From: Promethearchaeota archaeon
GTDB lineage: Archaea; Asgardarchaeota; Lokiarchaeia; Sigyniarchaeales; SOKP01
Length of the DNA: 64,000 nt
Assembly (NCBI GenBank): GCA_019057795.1
Contig: JAHLWS010000078.1
Span: 96,001-160,000 of the forward strand
Direction: 5' to 3'
The notes below the pieces were generated by a model, which was not told the DNA's origin, made no database searches, and saw only the letters and a list, made by a program, of their open reading frames with translations. This document shows, in pieces, positions 2,632-34,867 of this stretch. Numbering within the stretch: position 1 is the stretch's first letter; every line of letters starts with the position of its first letter. The position numbers and the translations under genes were made by a program.

Positions 2632-4359
2632 ATGACATCAATGAAGACAAATACAATTATTTATTTATATAATATGGGTGTAGACAAGTCAATAAAGAAA
2701 GAAATTGATTCAGACATAGAAAATTTCATTTACAATAGCATTAATAAATATCTTGGTAATCGTGAAGAAGTTGAAATTGAAGAAGACCCATATCAATTAA
2801 ATGGGGCAATATTAAATTGGCTTAGGCGGGCAAAAATTGATGAAAGACAAGTAAATCCTTTTTGTAAAAAGTTGCGGGACGCTCTTAGCACAAGATCAAT
2901 TGAAGCTCAGAGAAATCTTATTTTATATTTACGGTCTCATAAAAAAAGTGAGCCTTTTTTTTATATTATTCACACTTCTGAGAGACTTGAAGTTGTTGAT
3001 GAAGATTTTAAAAAAATTATTGAAGTAGGATTAGGTCCTGGAAAAATTCTAAGAGTTCTACAATTTTCTAGATTAAGTATTGATTCTATACAATTAAGTT
3101 ATAGGGAAAAATATAAATCAAATTTACTAATTAATTTATTTCATCTCACTTCTGACAGATATAAATCGACGGGCAGTATCAAGTTAAAGGGATCTTTTGG
3201 AAATGACTTAGATTTTATAATTGATTTGACTCCATCTAACTTTCTAAAGCATTATAATTCAAATAATATTAAATTTGAAGAAGATAATCAAATTGATATC
3301 TTTGATAGATATTCACTGAAGTTAAGGGAAATTAAGTTTGGCTCAGTTTATATCAAACCAACTAAAAATAAAATTGATAAATTCATAAAAACCATCAAAG
3401 ACGAATTCGATGAACACGAAGAGTTAATAGAAAAATTTCTTTTAGATTTCCAATCAATAAAACTGAAGTACGGAATTGAACAAAATATGTCTTTAACTAA
3501 GTTCTTAGATCCAAACGGATTTCCAGATCGGGAATCAATTAGATTCGAAGAAGGGAGGGAATTTGTTAAATGTTTTATTAATGATACGCTTGATTGCAGT
3601 ATTAAAAAACCAGTAGATCCTTGGGGTGAATTTTTTGTAATCGATAATTTAATTAATTTTTCACAGCATTATAGCAAAAATATTGCACGAGAAATAATTA
3701 TCGGGTCTTTAAGGAATGTTAGATTTATAGATATACCATTTTCTAAGGAAAAATTAAAAATTGGGCAATATTATTGGCATAACGATTTTTTAATCCATAG
3801 TAATTTAAAAAAATTACTTGAGTTTGTTCAAGACGAATACGATAAATCGGATAGCGACAGAAGACGAAAATTACTCTTGGTAGCTATGTTAGACATTCTC
3901 AAAAATGCTGTAGACAACATTTGTATGAGGAAATTTTCAAAAGAGATAATTTTTTGGTTAATAAAAGGAAAAGAGGATCTTTCAAGAGATATAGTTGAAG
4001 ATAATATTTTCGAATTTAAAAGGGGGGATATTTTAGATACATCAACTTTTACACTTCCACAAAGAATAACGAAAATCTCGAATGGTTTAAGACCTAATTT
4101 GAATAATAATGGATTGTCTATTTTAATTGTAGGTTATGATGAAGATAGAAATCAGATAACACCGATTAAATTTAGTCACTATAGAGAGGAAGTACGCCAA
4201 GAAATATATGATGGAATAAAAGGTGAATTATCAAATCAAGAGTTAATAATTAATATGTTCTTAATCAATACAGAAGATACAGATAAGGGACTAATCATCA
4301 TTTTTGCCGCAGATACAAATTATAGTGATAAAATAGACTTAAATAATCTTTTTAGTTAA
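2632..4359 (+). CDS. Hypothetical protein with C-terminal Schlafen/AlbA_2-like domain
   Basis: 575 aa ORF; EDNIFEFK...GLSILIVGYDED resembles AlbA_2 (E-x-K ... G-x-I-x-x-G-x-D). Confidence 0.45.
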   Translation: MTSMKTNTIIYLYNMGVDKSIKKEIDSDIENFIYNSINKYLGNREEVEIEEDPYQLNGAILNWLRRAKIDERQVNPFCKKLRDALSTRSIEAQRNLILYLRSHKKSEPFFYIIHTSERLEVVDEDFKKIIEVGLGPGKILRVLQFSRLSIDSIQLSYREKYKSNLLINLFHLTSDRYKSTGSIKLKGSFGNDLDFIIDLTPSNFLKHYNSNNIKFEEDNQIDIFDRYSLKLREIKFGSVYIKPTKNKIDKFIKTIKDEFDEHEELIEKFLLDFQSIKLKYGIEQNMSLTKFLDPNGFPDRESIRFEEGREFVKCFINDTLDCSIKKPVDPWGEFFVIDNLINFSQHYSKNIAREIIIGSLRNVRFIDIPFSKEKLKIGQYYWHNDFLIHSNLKKLLEFVQDEYDKSDSDRRRKLLLVAMLDILKNAVDNICMRKFSKEIIFWLIKGKEDLSRDIVEDNIFEFKRGDILDTSTFTLPQRITKISNGLRPNLNNNGLSILIVGYDEDRNQITPIKFSHYREEVRQEIYDGIKGELSNQELIINMFLINTEDTDKGLIIIFAADTNYSDKIDLNNLFS

Positions 4360-26324: not shown

Positions 26325-26996
26325 ATGACTGATACTAACTTTACTTTTTTATCCTTAGAAGATAGTATTTATGAAACTCCTTACTTGGATGATGATATAG
26401 ATGACGATATTCTTGAGTGGCATTCGATTGAAGGTGCTGAACGAATTAAGGAGCTTTCAAGACAATTACGAACATTTCTAAATTACAAGACATCAATGAT
26501 TTATTTAAGATTTTCAAGATCTCAGAATTGTGATCCCTTTCATAATAGAAATATGATTATAGAAAAGGAAAGAGAACTTAACATATTAACTTCACATCTT
26601 TTAGCTAATTTAAAAGAGATTGGTGTAGATGACGGAGATATTATTGGTGAGAAAATTCAAAGTCTATTTGATAAAATAAAGACCCTCCCAAATGAAATTG
26701 ATATAAACCGATTAAAAGATATAAAATCAATAAATAAAAAAATATGGGTGTTAATTCACATTTTATCTGAACTTGAGATTCATCATCACTCAAGGCTTTT
26801 TAATAGGATAACGAATATTGCCTGTATTTCTTGTGAAATTCAAAGCATATTGTTTCATCCTTTTTCAGAGTTCTATTATGAATTGAAAAGCAATTATCTT
26901 CTTTTAGTTAAGGAGATATCTGATTTACTAAGAATAAACAATAAGAACAAGGCTCCATCTATTAAAAATAAAAATAGGGAGAGAGTTCTTACATGA
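26325..26996 (+). CDS. Partner protein A of two-gene nuclease module (copy 1)
   Basis: W..IEGA..IKELSRQLRTF.NYKT shared with 58255-58869; ATGA overlap with next gene. Confidence 0.8.
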   Translation: MTDTNFTFLSLEDSIYETPYLDDDIDDDILEWHSIEGAERIKELSRQLRTFLNYKTSMIYLRFSRSQNCDPFHNRNMIIEKERELNILTSHLLANLKEIGVDDGDIIGEKIQSLFDKIKTLPNEIDINRLKDIKSINKKIWVLIHILSELEIHHHSRLFNRITNIACISCEIQSILFHPFSEFYYELKSNYLLLVKEISDLLRINNKNKAPSIKNKNRERVLT

Positions 26997-29821
26997 ATAC
27001 TAAAATTGAATCAGTAAATAGGGGAATGCTAAATGAGGAACGAATTGCAATTTGTTCCCATTTTGGATGTGGTACAATCAAAAAGGTTAAACCACTAAAA
27101 TTCGGTTCATTCGGATTTCGAAAATATCCTAAATGTTCAAAACACAAACTATCTTTAGTATTTGTCGATGAATTTGTAGAGCAATTTATTTGCTCTGTAA
27201 ATGCTTGTTTGTTTGATTTATCAAGCTTGCCACCTAAAGATTTGGTAAATTCTATTACTGAAGATGTTCCAGAAGAATTAGAATTATTTATCAATGTTTG
27301 GATGTATTGCAGTCCTATAGGACGAGGTGCTCAGATTATATCACGATATTTCGATGGACTTTCAAAGGGTTATATCAAATTACTCAGTCGTAAACAGAGA
27401 AAAGCAATTCAATGTGGAAAATCAAGCAAACGAAGTTACAATATGTTGCGTCAGGGATTAAAAAAAATTGCAGATGAATACACACTTTTCTTACAAGAGC
27501 TTCGTGTCGTATCGCACGATTATTGTGATCTAAATAAAGTACTTCCATTATCAAAAAAATCATGTGATATTATTAAAACCTGGCGAAAAAAACAATCAGT
27601 TAATAGAAGAAAGAAAAGTACTAAAGATGAAAATCTAAATGACATTTCATTATTAAAAAATGATTATGATGATATTCTACATTTAAGGACTTCTTCTTTT
27701 ATTATAGGAAAACCTCCTACAGAAAAAATATCTGCATTTGAGCTTTTTTCAGCTTATTTTGAATTTCTAAAGGAAGGTTTATGTAGCAAGCTAAAAAAAG
27801 AAAATATTCAACAAGTATTAAATATCCAAGAAACTAATACAGAGAACTCTTCATCTAAATCTCATTTAAGGCAAGAATTGTTAACCAATCTTTATGGTAT
27901 AATAGATTTAATAAACTTATATAATTCTGATCAAAAAGATGTAATGAAATCTAAATCTAAGGAAATACTAGAAGAATTCATATCCAGAATTGAACAAAAG
28001 GAATTTTATCTACCCAAAAATGCTAACTTAAGAGTTATTGCAAGTACGGTTGTATATACTACAGCTCTTTATGTTAAAAAATTGCCCATATTAACCACAA
28101 GAAAGATTGGAAACATTGCTGCTGCTACTCCCAGCAATATAAGTAGGTATTATAGAAGATATTTTGAGAAATTATATCCTCGAGAAAACTTTGAGATATA
28201 CGGATTTAAACGTATAAAATTAATTATTTCACTATATTTTTTTGAATTATTAAAGAATTCAAAGTTAAGAACATCCGAACTCATTTCAAACCTAGAAAAG
28301 GAGATATATAGTGAATTTTTTAAGGAAGAATTTGGAGAATATTTTACAAAAGACATTGAAATACTCCGTAATATGGTAACTCAATATCGAGATAAATTTA
28401 TTAAATACTTTTCTGATCTAGCTGAAATTGTTAAATTATTAGCAAATACAAGTAAAATTCATAAAGAAATTGGAGCAAAGGTATATCTCAAACCTATTAT
28501 CGACCTTTTAAATGAAGAAAACTTTAACTTGTTTCAAAAATCTCGTTTTGTTTTTTCCGTTAGAGAAATATATGATAGTTTAAGACATAAAAATCCGGAT
28601 CTTTTTCCTCCTCGAGCTTATCAAACAAAAGATAGAAATGTTACGAATAAACAGAGAACTAAAACCGATAAAGATTTGATAAGAATAATTGGAAGTAGAT
28701 TAAAAATATATGCCATAAAAAATATCTATAAAGGTAAGTATTTTAAAAACGGACAAGGAAAGTGTCAAGAATGTCAAGAAGAAAAAATGCTTATAAATAC
28801 CGACATTTCAAGATTGAATGCTCTAGAATTTCACCACACTTCTGAGAAAGAAAATCATTTTACTGCCAATAGACTTTATGAATTATTTACTAAAAATTTA
28901 CGTAATTTGAATTTGTTAGAATGGTTAATCGAGCTAATGGAAGCAGAAGAGGTGGTTCTTGTATGCAGAAATCACCATCGTATATTGGAAGAAAAGTACT
29001 ATGGATATTTTCATTATCTTATAAATTGGAAAAATTTATTCTGTTATCCACCAGAGGTAATACATGCACTCATTAGGATTTCAGTAGATACATTTTATAA
29101 AACAAAACGATTATCTGTAAACAAGAAAGCGGGTATTAGGGATGCAATTGCTAGATATATGAAAAAAAGGTATATTATAGAATTTTTTTATGGTGGTTCT
29201 TGTCATACTTGTGGAGAATTCCATACAAATAATCACTTACCAGCTTTCGTTTATCATCACAAAAATGAAGAGTCTAAAACGGTTAATATTAGTAAAGTAT
29301 ATCATCTTACTTGTTCTGAAATTATTCAAATCATTATAAAAGAGCAAGGTGGATATGTTTGTTCGAATTGTCATAGATTACTTCATTATAACAAATTTAT
29401 CCCCTTATTAGACGATATTTATAAAGATAAAAATATGATTAAAAGGATTATTAAAGACTATAATCGTATTCTCAGAGCATTTTCCCCCATTGAAAGTGTA
29501 GATATTAGAAAGAAGAGTCCTTTAATTAAACCTACTTTAGATACAGATAGCTTTATGAAGTTCTTAATAGCAATTTATGAGATTTCAAAGATGGGTAAAG
29601 AAGTCAATAATACTGAATTAAAAGAATATTTAAGCTATCACGATGTATCGTCCATAACAAGAATTTTTAGAAGAAAAGCTGATATTATTGGTAATTATAT
29701 CAGTATAATAAAAGGAGTTTCCAAATCTAGTCCTACTAAATACAAATTAAATGAAAAAGGAAAAAAAGTTATTTCCTTATTTCAAAAATTTAAGGATTTT
29801 TACGCTATTAGTTCAAATTAA
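26993..29821 (+). CDS. Module protein B (copy 1): conserved Cys/His N-terminal domain, TFIIB/cyclin-like helical region, two HNH-like domains, wHTH
   Basis: C..FGC...KPLK...PKC.KH; CQEC...LEFHH...CRNHH and CHTC...FVYHH...CSNCH; C-terminal KYKLNEKG. Confidence 0.75.
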   Translation: MNTKIESVNRGMLNEERIAICSHFGCGTIKKVKPLKFGSFGFRKYPKCSKHKLSLVFVDEFVEQFICSVNACLFDLSSLPPKDLVNSITEDVPEELELFINVWMYCSPIGRGAQIISRYFDGLSKGYIKLLSRKQRKAIQCGKSSKRSYNMLRQGLKKIADEYTLFLQELRVVSHDYCDLNKVLPLSKKSCDIIKTWRKKQSVNRRKKSTKDENLNDISLLKNDYDDILHLRTSSFIIGKPPTEKISAFELFSAYFEFLKEGLCSKLKKENIQQVLNIQETNTENSSSKSHLRQELLTNLYGIIDLINLYNSDQKDVMKSKSKEILEEFISRIEQKEFYLPKNANLRVIASTVVYTTALYVKKLPILTTRKIGNIAAATPSNISRYYRRYFEKLYPRENFEIYGFKRIKLIISLYFFELLKNSKLRTSELISNLEKEIYSEFFKEEFGEYFTKDIEILRNMVTQYRDKFIKYFSDLAEIVKLLANTSKIHKEIGAKVYLKPIIDLLNEENFNLFQKSRFVFSVREIYDSLRHKNPDLFPPRAYQTKDRNVTNKQRTKTDKDLIRIIGSRLKIYAIKNIYKGKYFKNGQGKCQECQEEKMLINTDISRLNALEFHHTSEKENHFTANRLYELFTKNLRNLNLLEWLIELMEAEEVVLVCRNHHRILEEKYYGYFHYLINWKNLFCYPPEVIHALIRISVDTFYKTKRLSVNKKAGIRDAIARYMKKRYIIEFFYGGSCHTCGEFHTNNHLPAFVYHHKNEESKTVNISKVYHLTCSEIIQIIIKEQGGYVCSNCHRLLHYNKFIPLLDDIYKDKNMIKRIIKDYNRILRAFSPIESVDIRKKSPLIKPTLDTDSFMKFLIAIYEISKMGKEVNNTELKEYLSYHDVSSITRIFRRKADIIGNYISIIKGVSKSSPTKYKLNEKGKKVISLFQKFKDFYAISSN

Positions 29822-29889
29822 AATAACATGTCAATTTATATTATTTTTTGAATTTATTAAATCAATTATATACTAAATATTTAAAAAAA

Positions 29890-31098
29890 ATGAAAGCTAT
29901 AGAATTAAGAGCAAAATGGGATCCTAAACCAGATTTCAAACTTGGTTTAAAGGATAATGATGGAAAGCTTACTTATCTCGGTTCTCAAGTTTGGAGAGGT
30001 CCACATATAAGTGTTGTGGATAAGGAAAAGCCAAAGATTCTTCCAAATGAAGTGCTTATCAGAGTAAAACGCTGTGGAATTCTTTAAAGATTTGTTTTAA
30101 AGAACACAATATGCGGCTCTGATGTTCATATGAATCAGGCTTACGATGATGGGTATATCTATTATCCTGGGCTAACAGCATTTCCAGTAACCCTCGGACA
30201 TGAATTTGCAGGAGAAATTGTTGAAGTAGGATCTCAAGCAATAAGTAAAAGGACTGGGAAACATTATGAAATAGGAGAGCCTGTAACCGTAGAAGAAATG
30301 GCATGGTGTGGTGAATGCAAACCTTGTTGTGATGGATATCCGAATCATTGCGAACGATTACAAGAAATTGGTTTTTCTATAGATGGAGCGTTTGCCGAGT
30401 ACATAACGGTTCCAGCAAAACTTTGTTGGAGTTTAAAGAAATTAGAAAGAAATTACGATGATGTTTTTAAAATTGGTAGCTTGGTTGAACCAACTTCAGT
30501 TGCTTTCAATGCAGTTATTGAGAGAGGTGGAGGCATTCGTCCAGGAGAAAATGTTATAATCTTGGGGGCTGGACCAATTGGATTAGTCTCTACTAAAATA
30601 TTGAAGACCGCAGGAGCGGGGTTATGCATTGTTTCAGAACCTGAAGAACATCGAGCGTCGTTAGCTAAACAAATGGGAGCCGACTATGTTATTAATCCTC
30701 TTAAAGAAAACTTTGTAGAAAAAGTAAAAGAATATACCGACAATGAAGGTGCAGCGCTATATCTTGAAGCTACAGGATTGCCACAAGTAGTAACTGATGA
30801 CATTCAAAATGCTATTTGGGAATGCAAGGCGGTTAATAGTACCGTCGTAATAGTTGCAAGAGCGGAACAAAGAATGCCAGTGTGTGGAGAGTTTTTTCAA
30901 GTCAAAAGGGCTAGAATTGTAGGAGCTCAAGGGCACTCAGGACACGGAACTTTTTTCAACGTAATTAGTTCGATGGCAGCTGGTATGGATGTTACTCCGA
31001 TGATTACAAAAGAAATTTCTCTTGAAGAAGTCCCAGAAAACATAAAACTTTTACAAACTGATAGAAAAAATTGCAAAATCTCCGCAATTATAAACTAA
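29890..31098 (+). CDS. iolM: scyllo-inosose 3-dehydrogenase, interrupted by a 30-nt insertion
   Basis: The 79-aa and 322-aa ORFs share a frame; AKWDPKPDFKLG...LTYLGSQVWR and YYPGLTAFPVTLGHEF match Thermotoga IolM; removing 30 nt restores VKRCGICGSDVH and a 392-aa protein. Confidence 0.88.
30080..30109 (+). other. 30-nt hairpin insertion with in-frame TAA; candidate BHB-type mRNA intron
   Basis: TTCTTTAAAG-ATTTG-TTTTAAAGAA stem; TGTG/CACA pairing; AAT direct repeat makes the boundaries slide by a few nt. Confidence 0.55.
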
Positions 31099-31105
31099 TA
31101 TGGGA

Positions 31106-31918
31106 CTACAAAATCGATCTTAAATATTGCAAAGAGCTTTTCGCTACTTCTTCAAAAGAAGGCTTCATAATTGTTTCAATTGAAACAAATTCGCTATACC
31201 CTGCGTTTTTAAAAATACTTAGAAAAGTTTTAAAATCAAAATGCCCTGAACCGGGAGCTCTTCGAGTTGTATCTGCTAAGTGTACATGTCCGACATGACG
31301 GGCCACTTCTTTTAAATTCTCCCAAACATAGATAGGATCTTCTTCTAAATGCGTATGAAATGAATCAACTAGCAACTTTAAGTACTCTGATCCTATTTCT
31401 TCAATTAATTTTAATGATTGAGAAATCGTATTATAGGAATCTATTTCGAAACGATTAATAGGCTCAAACACGAGCATTACGTTATTGTCTTCAGCTAACT
31501 TACAACATTCTTTTAAGGAAGAAATAATGTTTAACCTTTCTTTATTTGGATTACTATTGTGTTTGAAACGACCTCTTATTAACCCTATTATGACTTTAGA
31601 TCGCGTTTCTCGAGCAAAATTAATGTATTTTTCAATTCTTTCTATCGCTTTTTCCCGATTAGACTTTTCAGTATCTCCAAAAGAATACCCATAACGTATA
31701 TATGTGCTCCCTGTGCCAAGAGCAGAGATTTTTAATTCGTAAGATTCCGCAATTTCCACAATTTTATCAACATCGATTTTTTCAGGTTCAAGAAGGCTTA
31801 ATTCTACCCCATCATACTGTAAAGGCGCTAGTAATTGGCATAACGACGAAAACTTTTTGATTATGCCCTCTTTGTTGCTTTTAGATTCGTTTAATCCGGC
31901 AACTATACTAAGCAACAT
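31106..31918 (-). CDS. iolO: 5-keto-L-gluconate epimerase (xylose-isomerase-like TIM barrel)
   Basis: ISALGTG, VIIGLIRG, EPINRFE, DSFH, HVHLADT.R.APGSG; adjacent to iolM/iolN. Confidence 0.78.
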   Translation of the reverse strand: MLLSIVAGLNESKSNKEGIIKKFSSLCQLLAPLQYDGVELSLLEPEKIDVDKIVEIAESYELKISALGTGSTYIRYGYSFGDTEKSNREKAIERIEKYINFARETRSKVIIGLIRGRFKHNSNPNKERLNIISSLKECCKLAEDNNVMLVFEPINRFEIDSYNTISQSLKLIEEIGSEYLKLLVDSFHTHLEEDPIYVWENLKEVARHVGHVHLADTTRRAPGSGHFDFKTFLSIFKNAGYSEFVSIETIMKPSFEEVAKSSLQYLRSIL

Positions 31919-32011
31919 ATACTTATCTAAATCTGTTATTATTAAAATATTTATCAGATGTGAATGACTAAAATTATTAATATAGAATTAATTTTTAGGT
32001 GAAAATAAAAA

Positions 32012-32065
32012 ATGGGAAAATGGAACCTTCCTCCATCTGGCGGACACAAATATATAAGAATTTAA
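32012..32065 (+). pseudogene. Orphan 5' end of iolN (MGKWNLPPSGGH)
   Basis: AGGTGA RBS, ATG at 32012; matches MTKWNLPP....GH of 33887-34867; similarity ends near 32048. Confidence 0.85.
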
Positions 32066-33726
32066 TTATTTATCCAATCTTTAAGTTTTTGTTCACATTC
32101 TCTTTTTAATTTAGGATTATACTTATTCTTCCTCCAATAACCCATTGGTGGTTTATCAATCCTAGATAATTTGCATAACTTATCAATATCCTTAGGTAAA
32201 ACTCCTAATATTTTGGCTATTCTATTTTGGGGGATCTCCCATATTATCTCTTCTATATTCTCTTTAGGAATATTGGCTAAATTTTCTCTATTCTGTTCTA
32301 ATATAGGAGATTTCTTAATAGCTATAGCAGCTATTCTTGCTCTTTTTATACTTTCCTCTAAAGGAGTAAGATAAATTCTTTTTCTTGGTAAAGAATCTTT
32401 ATAATTATCTAAAATTTTATTAAATAGTTGTACTCCTAAGAACAATCTATAAGCATTTACATTTTTATTATCTCTGGTTACTAGATTATCAATGTTAAAT
32501 TTTTCTTTAATTTGTTCAAGAAATTTTCGATTTCCCGATGTAATTTTTGAAGTTCCTTTAGTTCCATCACCATCAAAATAACCTAATAGGAAAGCTAGTT
32601 CTATTTCACGATTAGGAAGTATAGGGTATTCAATTTTAAGAGATTTGTTAGGAATACAACCATGACTATTTAAATCATCAAACATCCTTTTACTGCTAAT
32701 TCGTATACGCACATTATTGTCAATATATTCTTTCTTCTCTTTATTAGCTCCCGAAAAATCAACATACTTATCAATTAATATTTCATCTTTCAAATTTACT
32801 TTTAGAGTTACTTTTTTAGATTTAGTATCCTTTTTTATATAAATAGAGCCATCTGAATACATCACACCTAACCAATATCCTTTTTCTTTAGTATTTATTA
32901 ATTCAAAACAATTGTCAATTAAATTTGGATGTGCTACATTCTCTCTTAAAACTCGTCGCTTTTCTAACCCTAATTCCTTTTCTTTATCTAGAACATAGTG
33001 ATGATCAATCCATATACTTTTAATATTTTTAAATTTAGCTATATTACTAGCTGCTTTTGTAGTTAACATAAGCTGATCAATTATGTACATCTCAATAATT
33101 CTTTCCTTATTTATAATCTTAACACATTTTAATAATTCTTCCTTGTCTTTATCTAATAAATCTTGATTTGTTTTAATGAAATCAACAAATGCAGGTCTTA
33201 AAACAACTCCTTTATTTGCTTTTTGCTTTCTTTTTTCAAAATAATCATTAAAAAGAGATAATAGCTTTGGATGAAATAATGTATTTTCAAAATAATTTTT
33301 ATCTCTATCCTTCAAATATTTTAGTCTAATTCTATCCAACTGTTCTTTATATTCTATTCTGTTTTCATGAGGATTTTTATCAATTTCTAAACTGCAATCT
33401 GGAATAAAGGTTCTCTCATTATTTTCTTGCATTTCGAGGGAGGGAGTAAAACTTCGCTCTTCATTCTTGATATTGAAGTTTAACTTAGGTGTAAAAGTTA
33501 TATTCACAAAATCTTCAGATATTTCAGCAGAAGGATTGAAGCTAGTAGTTTCTTGTTTAAGATCTGGAGTAAAAAATCTTTCTTTATCCAATTTTGGTAT
33601 TTTTAAAGATGGAAAGAATATATTGTCTTCTTTAGATTTACCTTTGTAAATATCTGAATTATTCTCTTTAGATTTAACCTCTTTCCAACTCTTTCTGTTC
33701 TTATATTCATTACCATATTTGGACAT
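32062..33726 (-). CDS. Free-standing LAGLIDADG endonuclease with six F-x-P repeats in its leader
   Basis: YWLGVMYSDG and FLLGYFDGDG; FFP/FTP/FNP/FTP/FTP/FIP then RI...KDRDKNY; C-terminal HTH-like KPPMGYW. Confidence 0.88.
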   Translation of the reverse strand: MSKYGNEYKNRKSWKEVKSKENNSDIYKGKSKEDNIFFPSLKIPKLDKERFFTPDLKQETTSFNPSAEISEDFVNITFTPKLNFNIKNEERSFTPSLEMQENNERTFIPDCSLEIDKNPHENRIEYKEQLDRIRLKYLKDRDKNYFENTLFHPKLLSLFNDYFEKRKQKANKGVVLRPAFVDFIKTNQDLLDKDKEELLKCVKIINKERIIEMYIIDQLMLTTKAASNIAKFKNIKSIWIDHHYVLDKEKELGLEKRRVLRENVAHPNLIDNCFELINTKEKGYWLGVMYSDGSIYIKKDTKSKKVTLKVNLKDEILIDKYVDFSGANKEKKEYIDNNVRIRISSKRMFDDLNSHGCIPNKSLKIEYPILPNREIELAFLLGYFDGDGTKGTSKITSGNRKFLEQIKEKFNIDNLVTRDNKNVNAYRLFLGVQLFNKILDNYKDSLPRKRIYLTPLEESIKRARIAAIAIKKSPILEQNRENLANIPKENIEEIIWEIPQNRIAKILGVLPKDIDKLCKLSRIDKPPMGYWRKNKYNPKLKRECEQKLKDWINN

Positions 33727-33886
33727 AAAAACTTCCCGTATTTTTTTTAATTGTTGAGAAATTTATTATTATATTCCAGTAAAAAATTTGGAGTGATCTA
33801 AATTTTAAACTTAAAAATCATTATTTCAAATAGAAATAATTTGAAGAATTAATAGTATGATGAAAAAGAAAAATAGGTAAAATTAA

Positions 33887-34867
33887 ATGACAAAATGGAA
33901 TTTACCACCTGAATATAGTAAGTGCAGAGGACATATGGACTTACCGGATGGAATTTATCTCCAAAATATGAACATTTCTGAAATTCGAGAACGCGTAAAA
34001 AAAAATGACGTTATAATCATCCCAATCGGGTCTACTGAAAACCACGGTCCAGCAGCTTGTATAGGAGAAGATACATTTTTAGTAACGAGAATGGCTGAAA
34101 TAATAGCGCAAAAAACGGGTTGTACAGTTGCCCAACCAACTTGGTACGGTTCTCATCCATATCATCACGTTGGAATGCCTGGTACCATAATAGTTCCTGA
34201 AGAAACATTTAAGGGACTTTTGCGAGCTATAATGGCTGGTTGTTGGAACATGGGTTTTAGAAAAATGATCCTATTAAATGGTCATGGTCACGAGTATGTT
34301 ATCCCGAGCGCAATTCACGAGTGGGCCAAAAACTATCAATTACCTGCCGTAATTTGTAATGTTAACTGGTATCACGCAATTCCAGAATATTGTAAGGATA
34401 AAGAACACGGAGGCCCTTTTGAAACTCCTTTCGTTCATGCAGATGAAGCAGAAACCTCATTTTCAATGACACTCTTTCCAGAAATGATAAGAAAAATTGA
34501 TTCTAGCGAAGATAACGAAGTTGTTGGATGGATGCCTGATGGACATGTTGATAAAGCTGGAAATATCTATCAAAAACCAATCCGATGGTATGGACAAATA
34601 GGGTTTGGACCAATTGAACTTGCAGCATATCCTGAAGGGCATGTAGGATGTCCAAGTAAAGCAACTTTCGAGAAAGGCGAACCTGGTATGGAGGCTTTTT
34701 TAGATTACTTAGAGAAATTAGTCGTTGATATATTGAAGACTTTTCCACCAGGAAAATTACCCCCTACTGATCAAATTACGCAACGAGATCCGAAAGAAAT
34801 TGAACCGTATTTAAAAGGACCTTTAAATGGTGGAAAAAGTATTTATGAATTGAGATATCCACCTTAA
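33887..34867 (+). CDS. iolN: 3-dehydro-scyllo-inosose hydrolase (creatininase family)
   Basis: PIGSTENHG, EDT, NGHG, HADEAETS; similarity to Thermotoga IolN and gene context. Confidence 0.88.
   Translation: MTKWNLPPEYSKCRGHMDLPDGIYLQNMNISEIRERVKKNDVIIIPIGSTENHGPAACIGEDTFLVTRMAEIIAQKTGCTVAQPTWYGSHPYHHVGMPGTIIVPEETFKGLLRAIMAGCWNMGFRKMILLNGHGHEYVIPSAIHEWAKNYQLPAVICNVNWYHAIPEYCKDKEHGGPFETPFVHADEAETSFSMTLFPEMIRKIDSSEDNEVVGWMPDGHVDKAGNIYQKPIRWYGQIGFGPIELAAYPEGHVGCPSKATFEKGEPGMEAFLDYLEKLVVDILKTFPPGKLPPTDQITQRDPKEIEPYLKGPLNGGKSIYELRYPP

Follow-up and report, generated by a model that had tools for sequence, protein, structure and literature searches.

How does a gene on a Lokiarchaeial chromosome come to have two starts, one of them stranded behind a nuclease gene that is read in the opposite direction? 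The question is raised by a 64,000-nucleotide window (contig JAHLWS010000078.1, positions 96,001 to 160,000, assembly GCA_019057795.1) of a Promethearchaeota archaeon (Lokiarchaeia), in which the inositol-breakdown gene iolN and its divergent neighbour, an iolO-like gene, are separated by a LAGLIDADG gene. A first-pass annotation, made from the sequence alone, had noted a stranded iolN start with an AGGTGA ribosome-binding site (RBS), an antisense LAGLIDADG gene and an intact iolN with a different start, all of which are present where it placed them. It proposed that a mobile element had inserted near the G-H codons of iolN, with neither an intein nor an intron around the nuclease, and that alleles lacking the element should read continuously across the site. 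We conclude, with a probability of about 85%, that positions 32048-33934 are a free-standing LAGLIDADG homing cassette, neither intron- nor intein-borne, that is spreading among Lokiarchaeial iolN genes. The source genome of the window is referred to as G000, other genomes of the same genus carry G numbers, and further contigs or loci carry L numbers.

The uninterrupted state is seen throughout the genus. Among the 13 other same-genus genomes with iolN, 12 have iolO and iolN as divergent neighbours 95-120 bp apart with no nuclease between them, and the thirteenth (G006) has a scaffold gap in the spacer. The closest relative, G009, reads MGKWNLPPSGGHMD (in a longer reading, MGKWNLPPSGGHMDMPDG) without a break, as predicted, and the G009-type empty site around the boundary is …CCTCCATCTGGTGGCCAT/ATGGATATGCCAGATGG…, with the slash at the boundary. 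Homology between G000 and G009 ends at approximately 32040-32047 and restarts at 33929-33935, which places the insertion between iolN codons 12 and 13, at the GH/MD codon boundary and at the G-H codons where it had been expected. The sequence GGACAY is present at both cassette junctions. To the left remains a stub, MGKWNLPPSGGH, which differs from codons 1-12 of iolN in G009 at four third positions, and whose frame continues past 32047 as KYIRI to end at a TAA codon at 32063-32065. The stub is not a chance match, because together with the spacer upstream of it, it is collinear with the native 95-120-bp iolO-iolN spacer and iolN start of the 12 nuclease-free relatives. To the right, the resident iolN body is identical to that of G009 in amino acid sequence and 96.5% identical in nucleotide sequence, with non-synonymous (dN) and synonymous (dS) divergence of 0.002 and 0.175. 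The iolO-like gene is 93% identical to its G009 counterpart at the nucleotide level, and its best NCBIfam match is IolO (234 bits, below the cut-off of 300).

The reading of the stub as a former gene start depends on where iolN begins. Intact iolN (33887-34867) matches the NCBIfam IolN equivalog with 505 bits against a cut-off of 245, and the model begins at residue 17, the methionine of MD. Conservation of an N-terminal segment, W.LPP.GGHMD, reaches as far as bacterial IolN, and the methionine of MD is replaced by leucine in three members of the genus; it follows that the N-terminal extension is coding and that iolN truly starts at the upstream ATG.

Occupied copies beyond G000 came from metagenome proteins and contigs (L055, L056, L057, L058, L059, L098 and L099). 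These seven contigs derive from different samples and at least four host lineages, and all share the arrangement of stub and antisense nuclease gene at the same junction: a local iolN start stub ends at or near the GH codons and is followed by the nuclease gene, the stop codon of which lies 12-14 nt past the intact stubs. A spacer and a variant iolN start follow wherever the contig is long enough, L056 and L057 ending before the iolN start. The nuclease proteins are 95% (L055 and L098), 80% (L056, L057 and L099), 70% (L058) and 60% (L059) identical to that of G000 in amino acid sequence. L058 provides a second occupied/empty pair in a different lineage, its iolN body being 98% identical at the nucleotide level to that of the empty G001. 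The cassette is polymorphic for presence and absence at one fixed site, with the same junction in eight occupied copies and 12 contiguous empty sites. Relatives of the nuclease are numerous in the 42 genus representatives in which they were sought; the best are only 41-45% identical, and none is at iolN.

Movement of the cassette as a unit is seen in the comparison of G000 with L099, lineages in which the iolO proteins are only 70% identical. Nucleotide identity on the left host side is 71% in iolO, 68% in the native spacer and 58% in the stub; in the cassette it is 92% from the end of the stub to the nuclease stop codon, 89% in the nuclease open reading frame (ORF), 92% in the cassette spacer (with one 203-bp indel) and 96% in the replacement start; and in the iolN body to the right it is 76%. 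The rise from 58-71% to 89-96% coincides exactly with the cassette limits. Synonymous codons are identical at 399 of 438 sites (91%) in the nuclease gene as against 86 of 185 (46%) in the flanking iolO (Fisher, 4e-32), and dS is 0.20 in the former and saturated in the latter. The corresponding counts for G000 and L058 are 236/331 in the nuclease gene and 78/170 in iolO (p = 4e-8). Because the cassette is far less diverged than its flanks, the nuclease gene, spacer and replacement start move as one block, which passed between lineages well after their separation. The stubs of G000 and L098 differ at 5 of 36 nt, all of them third-position synonymous changes, and dS between their nuclease genes is 0.05; L056 and L057 encode an identical nuclease protein next to stubs that differ at five positions. 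This fits the stubs being recipient DNA, with repeated entry of the cassette into different native alleles and the stub serving as the left homology arm at the break.

Table 1. Positions of the iolN cassette, its host genes and related cassettes (window coordinates unless another contig is named).
Feature	Positions	Strand	Description	Basis
Mobile cassette	32048..33934		1887 bp, missing from empty alleles	G000/G009 and G000/L099 boundaries
Free-standing LAGLIDADG gene	32062..33726	-	554 amino acids	Pfam LAGLIDADG_3
Nuclease, N-terminal part	32941..33726	-	disordered repeat leader (amino acids 1-120, ER.FTP-type repeats) and helical region (121-262)
Nuclease, double-LAGLIDADG core	32362..32940	-	amino acids 263-455	motifs, AlphaFold2 model, Foldseek
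Nuclease, C-terminal helical extension	32065..32361	-	amino acids 456-554	confident helices in model; conserved in family
Cassette-borne spacer	33727..33886		160 bp, new RBS AGGTAA about 8 nt before ATG
Replacement iolN 5' end	33887..33934	+	16 codons, MTKWNLPPEYSKCRGH	96% to L099 cassette, 90% to L058
Variant segment EYSKCR, candidate immunity change	33911..33928	+	replaces native S-G codons; net +12 nt between PP and GH codons
Resident iolN body	33935..34867	+	from MDLPDG	NCBIfam IolN model starts here
Stub, stranded native iolN start	32012..32047	+	MGKWNLPPSGGH, ATG at 32012
Native iolO-iolN divergent spacer	31919..32011		conserved motif and AGGTGA RBS at 31997-32002
iolO-like gene, left host flank	31106..31918	-	xylose-isomerase-like TIM barrel	Pfam AP_endonuc_2, 9.7e-40
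GH38 cassette, L022 (G000 contig 65)	about 1262-1314, 1315-2574, 2757-2870		relatives L068-L097
Aldolase C-terminal copies, L035 (G042 contig 99)	1419-1442, 2798-2821
Aldolase C-terminal copies, L053 (G018 contig 82)	1422-1445, 3366-3389

LAGLIDADG endonucleases cleave a long target in a site-specific manner and leave 4-nt 3' overhangs. The Pfam LAGLIDADG_3 match of the cassette gene has an E value of 3.7e-6 (27.6 bits against a cut-off of 22.5), and its two motifs, WLGVMYSDG and LLGYFDGDG, keep both catalytic aspartates (D292 and D387). In 20 homologues, D292/G293 and D385-G388 are invariant and both motifs are kept. An AlphaFold2 model has a mean predicted local distance difference test score of 76, exceeding 90 in the core, confident from residue 120 onwards and below 50 for residues 1-120. 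The top Foldseek matches are to I-DmoI (probability 1.0, template-modelling score about 0.65 by target, in a range of 0.6-0.68, whole target covered), and a profile search among solved structures found I-Tsp061I, I-HjeMI, I-AniI and I-DmoI, with a sequence match to 2dch of 2.4e-5. The modelled core has the pseudo-dimeric alpha-beta-beta-alpha-beta-beta-alpha fold of LAGLIDADG enzymes. The gene is intact and under selection, as all copies have open ORFs and dN/dS in the core is approximately 0.2 across copies 60-95% identical. The C-terminal extension is possibly an extra DNA-binding module. Pfam gave no significant match to either extension, the only hit being a Cro-like match to the C-terminal part at E 0.19. 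The peptide repeats of the leader are encoded by a DNA repeat, D1. We also note that the leader (33367-33726) and the helical region following it match the N-termini of other large ORFs of the genus, 590-830 amino acids in length, which suggests a leader shared by different nucleases.

The right-hand part of the cassette replaces what the insertion severed. As proteins, the stub and the replacement start share M.KWNLPP..GH, and their synonymous positions differ. The replacement start is identical to that of L058 at 43 of 48 positions (90%, counted by eye), compared with 75-76% identity between the iolN bodies. The first-pass annotation had attributed to the element both a new promoter and a recoded, cleavage-resistant N-terminus. 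The sharp G000/L099 boundaries bear out that the upstream region and the N-terminus are cassette-borne; the start is not recoded throughout, and is instead another allele, in which 12 nt are inserted between the codons for PP and those for GH. The cassette spacer shares conserved blocks with L058, and it is only on account of its conservation that divergent promoters, one for the nuclease gene and one for iolN, are presumed to lie in it. Part of it (33845-33881) resembles the native upstream region at 31984-32020 with 76% identity, forming a weak 37-nt repeat. Every occupied allele whose start is within reach has an indel at the variant segment, which reads EYSKCR in G000, L055 and L098, EYRKCR in L099, EYNNSR in L058 and KEF in L059. 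In the empty alleles of the genus PP-x-G-GH is kept in 12 of 13, and the indel of the replacement start splits the CCNCC…GGNGG pseudo-palindrome found in the native codons for P-P-x-G-G.

The most likely scenario is that the nuclease would cut a nuclease-free iolN at or near the codon 12/13 boundary (…PP-x-G-G-H/M-D…), and that the break would be repaired from an occupied allele, with the donor stub pairing with the left end and the donor iolN body with the right. Because both break ends would find a partner in this way, the whole cassette would be copied in. The native start would become a dead stub, and the cassette would supply an RBS-bearing spacer that presumably also includes a promoter, together with the replacement start, so that iolN could stay expressed from a spacer and start of the cassette's own. 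The occupied allele would be protected at both places, the insertion splitting the site at the stub and the replacement start differing by an indel that lies within a few base pairs of the junction and would make it resistant to cleavage.

Later states of the locus are also represented. In L060 and L061, from two samples, the nuclease ORF is deleted, and a decayed stub, the cassette spacer and a KEF start are kept within a 321-bp gap; these loci match L059 at 95-98% on both sides, and their proteins fall in a cluster of 165 members with the KEF start. Since cassette sequence is kept on both sides of the deleted ORF, L060 represents a state after loss and not an independent origin. The stubs themselves are decaying: that of L058 has an insertion of 5 nt, those of L059 and L060 lack GGH, and in L057 and L099 a G has become R. 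A 17-nt repeat, TTCATGTGAAATAAAAT, brackets the decayed stub of L059 on the reverse strand, which suggests a secondary duplication of the RBS region.

A further group of alleles has a variant start behind a normal native spacer with no nuclease: G016 (TTG start, EYSNSR), L062 (PAENLCS) and L063-67 (KEV). The first-pass annotation had held that empty-site relatives with the EYSKCR start and the stub, independently of the nuclease, would speak against insertion, and G016, L062, L063-67 and L060/L061 do in part present this picture, leaving aside the origin of L060 with its cassette remnants on both sides. G016 is ambiguous in this respect. Its homology with the cassette starts ends at the start codon, and it could be a recombination product of stub and replacement start (a footprint of nuclease loss) or the source allele of the EYS start. 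L062 is a close relative of G000 and G009, in which the flanks of 846-1829 are 89-94% identical to G000 and the whole of iolN only 71-78%; the gene has a TTG start and the PAENLCS insertion, with the left breakpoint at the start codon. This looks like replacement of a whole-gene allele. The iolN locus therefore exchanges alleles.

Several observations weigh against the homing interpretation. Only one of the 14 iolN-bearing genus representatives is occupied. The nuclease-free variant starts of G016, L062 and L063-67 could be ancestral alleles and not resistant leftovers. Cleavage, the position of the cut, immunity, promoter activity and the repair pathway are features that we infer. The stubs of G000, L055, L056 and L098 retain an intact PP-x-GG, and as the pseudo-palindrome is undisturbed there, their protection would rest on the junction alone and the recognition site would have to extend across it. 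The mismatch gradient that would point to co-conversion is weak: mismatches to G009 are densest beside the junction, with six in the first 27 nt, but this region is variable in all lineages.

The same design recurs at unrelated genes, as seen in a screen of nuclease-family loci for peptide-level repeats flanking the ORF. In L022, a GH38 alpha-mannosidase-like gene has a stub ending …HWDRE, an antisense nuclease gene, and a new start that again reads …HWDRE and is followed by a 30-nt hairpin insert and WYLPF. The insert contains in-frame stop codons and sits exactly at the junction, and its stem covaries. Across the genus, 20 loci are continuous at this site without a nuclease and eight have the 30-nt insert, four of these eight also having the nuclease. 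By analogy, an interruption located exactly at the junction supports the iolN indel being a form of target-site protection. In DhnA-type aldolase genes of two other genomes, nuclease homologues lie at the 3' end on the same strand with a duplicated C-terminus (…ASVDEAYEIY..GPVGL*), a 3'-end replacement by the same nuclease family. The cassette at iolN thus belongs to a wider group of elements that replace gene ends. In L046 (G050 contig 384) copies of a diverged peptide repeat, FSLNL..DFS.S.TVK, lie on either side of another family member, at 946-960 and 2545-2559.

Within the window, a 30-nt palindromic insert with an in-frame TAA (30085-30114) splits the CGICGSD zinc motif of iolM, and the iolM ORFs at 29848-30087 and 30130-31098 share one frame. 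Directly upstream of iolM is a 942-amino-acid ORF (26993-29821) with no Pfam match; its distance from the iolM mini-insert is approximately 260 bp, and the iol cluster may thus have undergone more than one invasion. Whether the LAGLIDADG family of the cassette amounts to a general splicing-free homing system of Asgard (Lokiarchaeial) chromosomes is a question on which we see the odds as even. Such a system would invade the 5' or 3' ends of metabolic genes, rescue them with a carried end (and a promoter region at 5' ends), and protect them by an in-frame indel as in iolN or by a 30-nt tRNA-type mini-intron as in GH38. If it exists, the nucleases would be a natural cleave-and-rescue drive and a source of N-terminal variants, whole-gene allele replacement and mini-introns in archaeal mRNAs.

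It is improbable, in our view, that the cassette spreads only through ordinary homologous recombination or transfer of the iol locus, with the LAGLIDADG protein an inactive passenger or a domesticated regulator resembling WhiA. In favour of it, additional helical modules flank the core of the protein at both the N- and the C-terminal side, WhiA stands at rank 48 among the fold matches, and the iolN of L062 was replaced in its entirety with no nuclease in sight. A passenger would, however, hardly keep both catalytic aspartates and both motifs invariant at a dN/dS of about 0.2, nor would ordinary recombination end the transferred block exactly at the stub junction and the GH/MD junction instead of at arbitrary points. 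The multi-copy family at unrelated genes, each with a duplicated gene end, and the patchy distribution among close relatives also argue against it. Even less likely is that a tyrosine recombinase acting in trans mobilises the cassette as a small integrative element, with the stub as attL, the new start as attR and GGACAY as the crossover core. Integrative elements commonly rebuild the end of the gene that they interrupt, GGACAY is found at both junctions, and in L056 a Phage_integrase-family gene (2049-2897, E 1.8e-14) stands in the place of iolO beside the native spacer and stub. Yet there is no integrase in or beside the cassette in G000, L058, L059 or L099, and L099 has the same cassette type as L056 with iolO at that place. 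The common core is only 5-6 nt with the repeats otherwise diverged, and the selected nuclease gene explains mobility by itself. As to a viral carrier, no relative of the nuclease was found on viral contigs.

Least credible of all is that the 1.9-kb insert is an intron, in which case the stub would be exon 1, joined by splicing to the MD… body, and the start farther downstream would be incidental. Joining the stub to 33935 does restore the native reading MGKWNLPPSGGH-MD, there are mini-introns in nearby and other mRNAs of the genome (iolM, GH38), and the nearest solved relatives of the nuclease are intron-encoded archaeal enzymes. An exon would not be expected to decay as the stubs do in L057/L099, L058, L059 and L060, and an incidental start would not keep its ATG, RBS and conserved peptide across cassettes only 60-95% identical. 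The antisense orientation of the ORF excludes an intein, and no Rfam group I or II intron family matched at E <= 1, with the bulge-helix-bulge fold at the junctions not formally tested; the claim that neither surrounds the nuclease stands. An assembly artefact is ruled out by the same junctions in seven contigs from other samples. A transposon with target-site duplication was also rejected, the repeats being diverged and protein-like and no transposase being present, and no terminal inverted repeats rise above the AT-rich background at the cassette ends.

Homing endonucleases are usually thought to persist inside genes only within introns or inteins. The homing cassette at iolN would extend gene-end replacement, documented for 3' ends in fungal mitochondria, to an archaeal chromosome and to a 5' end, where expression signals must therefore be carried too. 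It would explain the hypervariable segment in the otherwise conserved N-terminus of IolN, and its natural allele series (naive, occupied, nuclease-deleted and variant-start) offers ready substrates for defining a new meganuclease specificity. Taken with the GH38 paralogue, it would connect selfish nucleases with how mini-introns spread and alleles turn over in the archaea most closely related to eukaryotes. A full-text literature search on free-standing LAGLIDADG genes in archaea, including Asgard archaea, found no description of such a design, its coverage being incomplete and absence not proven.

The nearest known counterparts are those mobile endonuclease ORFs (mORFs) in fungal mitochondria that bring a foreign gene end with them, as in atp6 of Allomyces macrogynus and atp6, atp9, cox2 and nad3 of Glomus (PMC3630166); N-terminal duplications around mobile elements are known in the mitochondrial DNA of Tremella fuciformis (PMC7315562). 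In the mORFs, as at iolN, a nuclease gene (LAGLIDADG, and there also GIY-YIG) lies in a protein gene with neither intron nor intein, a duplicate of one gene end is present and the hybrid is usable. The attached copy is likewise foreign and diverged and the stranded copy matches a close relative, here the stub with G009 and the new start with other cassettes at 90-96%. The fungal elements differ in being organellar and nearly all at the 3' end, with the nuclease ORF usually in phase and co-transcribed with the host gene, whereas the iolN cassette is on an archaeal chromosome, replaces a 5' end together with its RBS and upstream spacer, has an antisense nuclease gene with its own start, and bears an indel beside the junction.

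Intronless homing by free-standing endonucleases of T4-like phages, such as SegB (PMC2330249) and MobE (PMC2790892; reviewed in PMC2988022), shares with the proposed scenario a free-standing gene, a break in the nuclease-free genome followed by repair, the carrying over of flanks, and protection by sequence differences. The phage genes, of the GIY-YIG and HNH families, sit between genes, split none and bring no replacement end, and their mobility was demonstrated in crosses, whereas that of the iolN cassette is read from the comparison of alleles. In collaborative homing, the free-standing nuclease F-CphI targets the intron-insertion site of the neighbouring cyanophage psbA (PMC6083498). The GH38 paralogue is similar in that the neighbour of its nuclease gene is a gene copy into which 30 nt are inserted exactly at the junction, and the iolN indel may have the corresponding role; the iolN interruption differs in being a translated in-frame insertion and not an intron, and in being accompanied by a stub and a replacement start.

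At the level of the protein, the modelled core has the double-motif single-chain fold of I-DmoI and I-Tsp061I, monomeric enzymes encoded in archaeal rRNA introns. It differs from them in an identity of only 17-20%, in about 260 extra N-terminal and 100 extra C-terminal residues, and in not being intron-encoded. In synthetic cleave-and-rescue gene drives, a nuclease directed against a wild-type gene is coupled to a version of the gene that resists cleavage and serves as the rescue. The logic at iolN would be the same, with the differences that the cassette is natural, is situated at the target locus itself and rescues only the end of the gene, with a resistance that we infer from comparison of its alleles.

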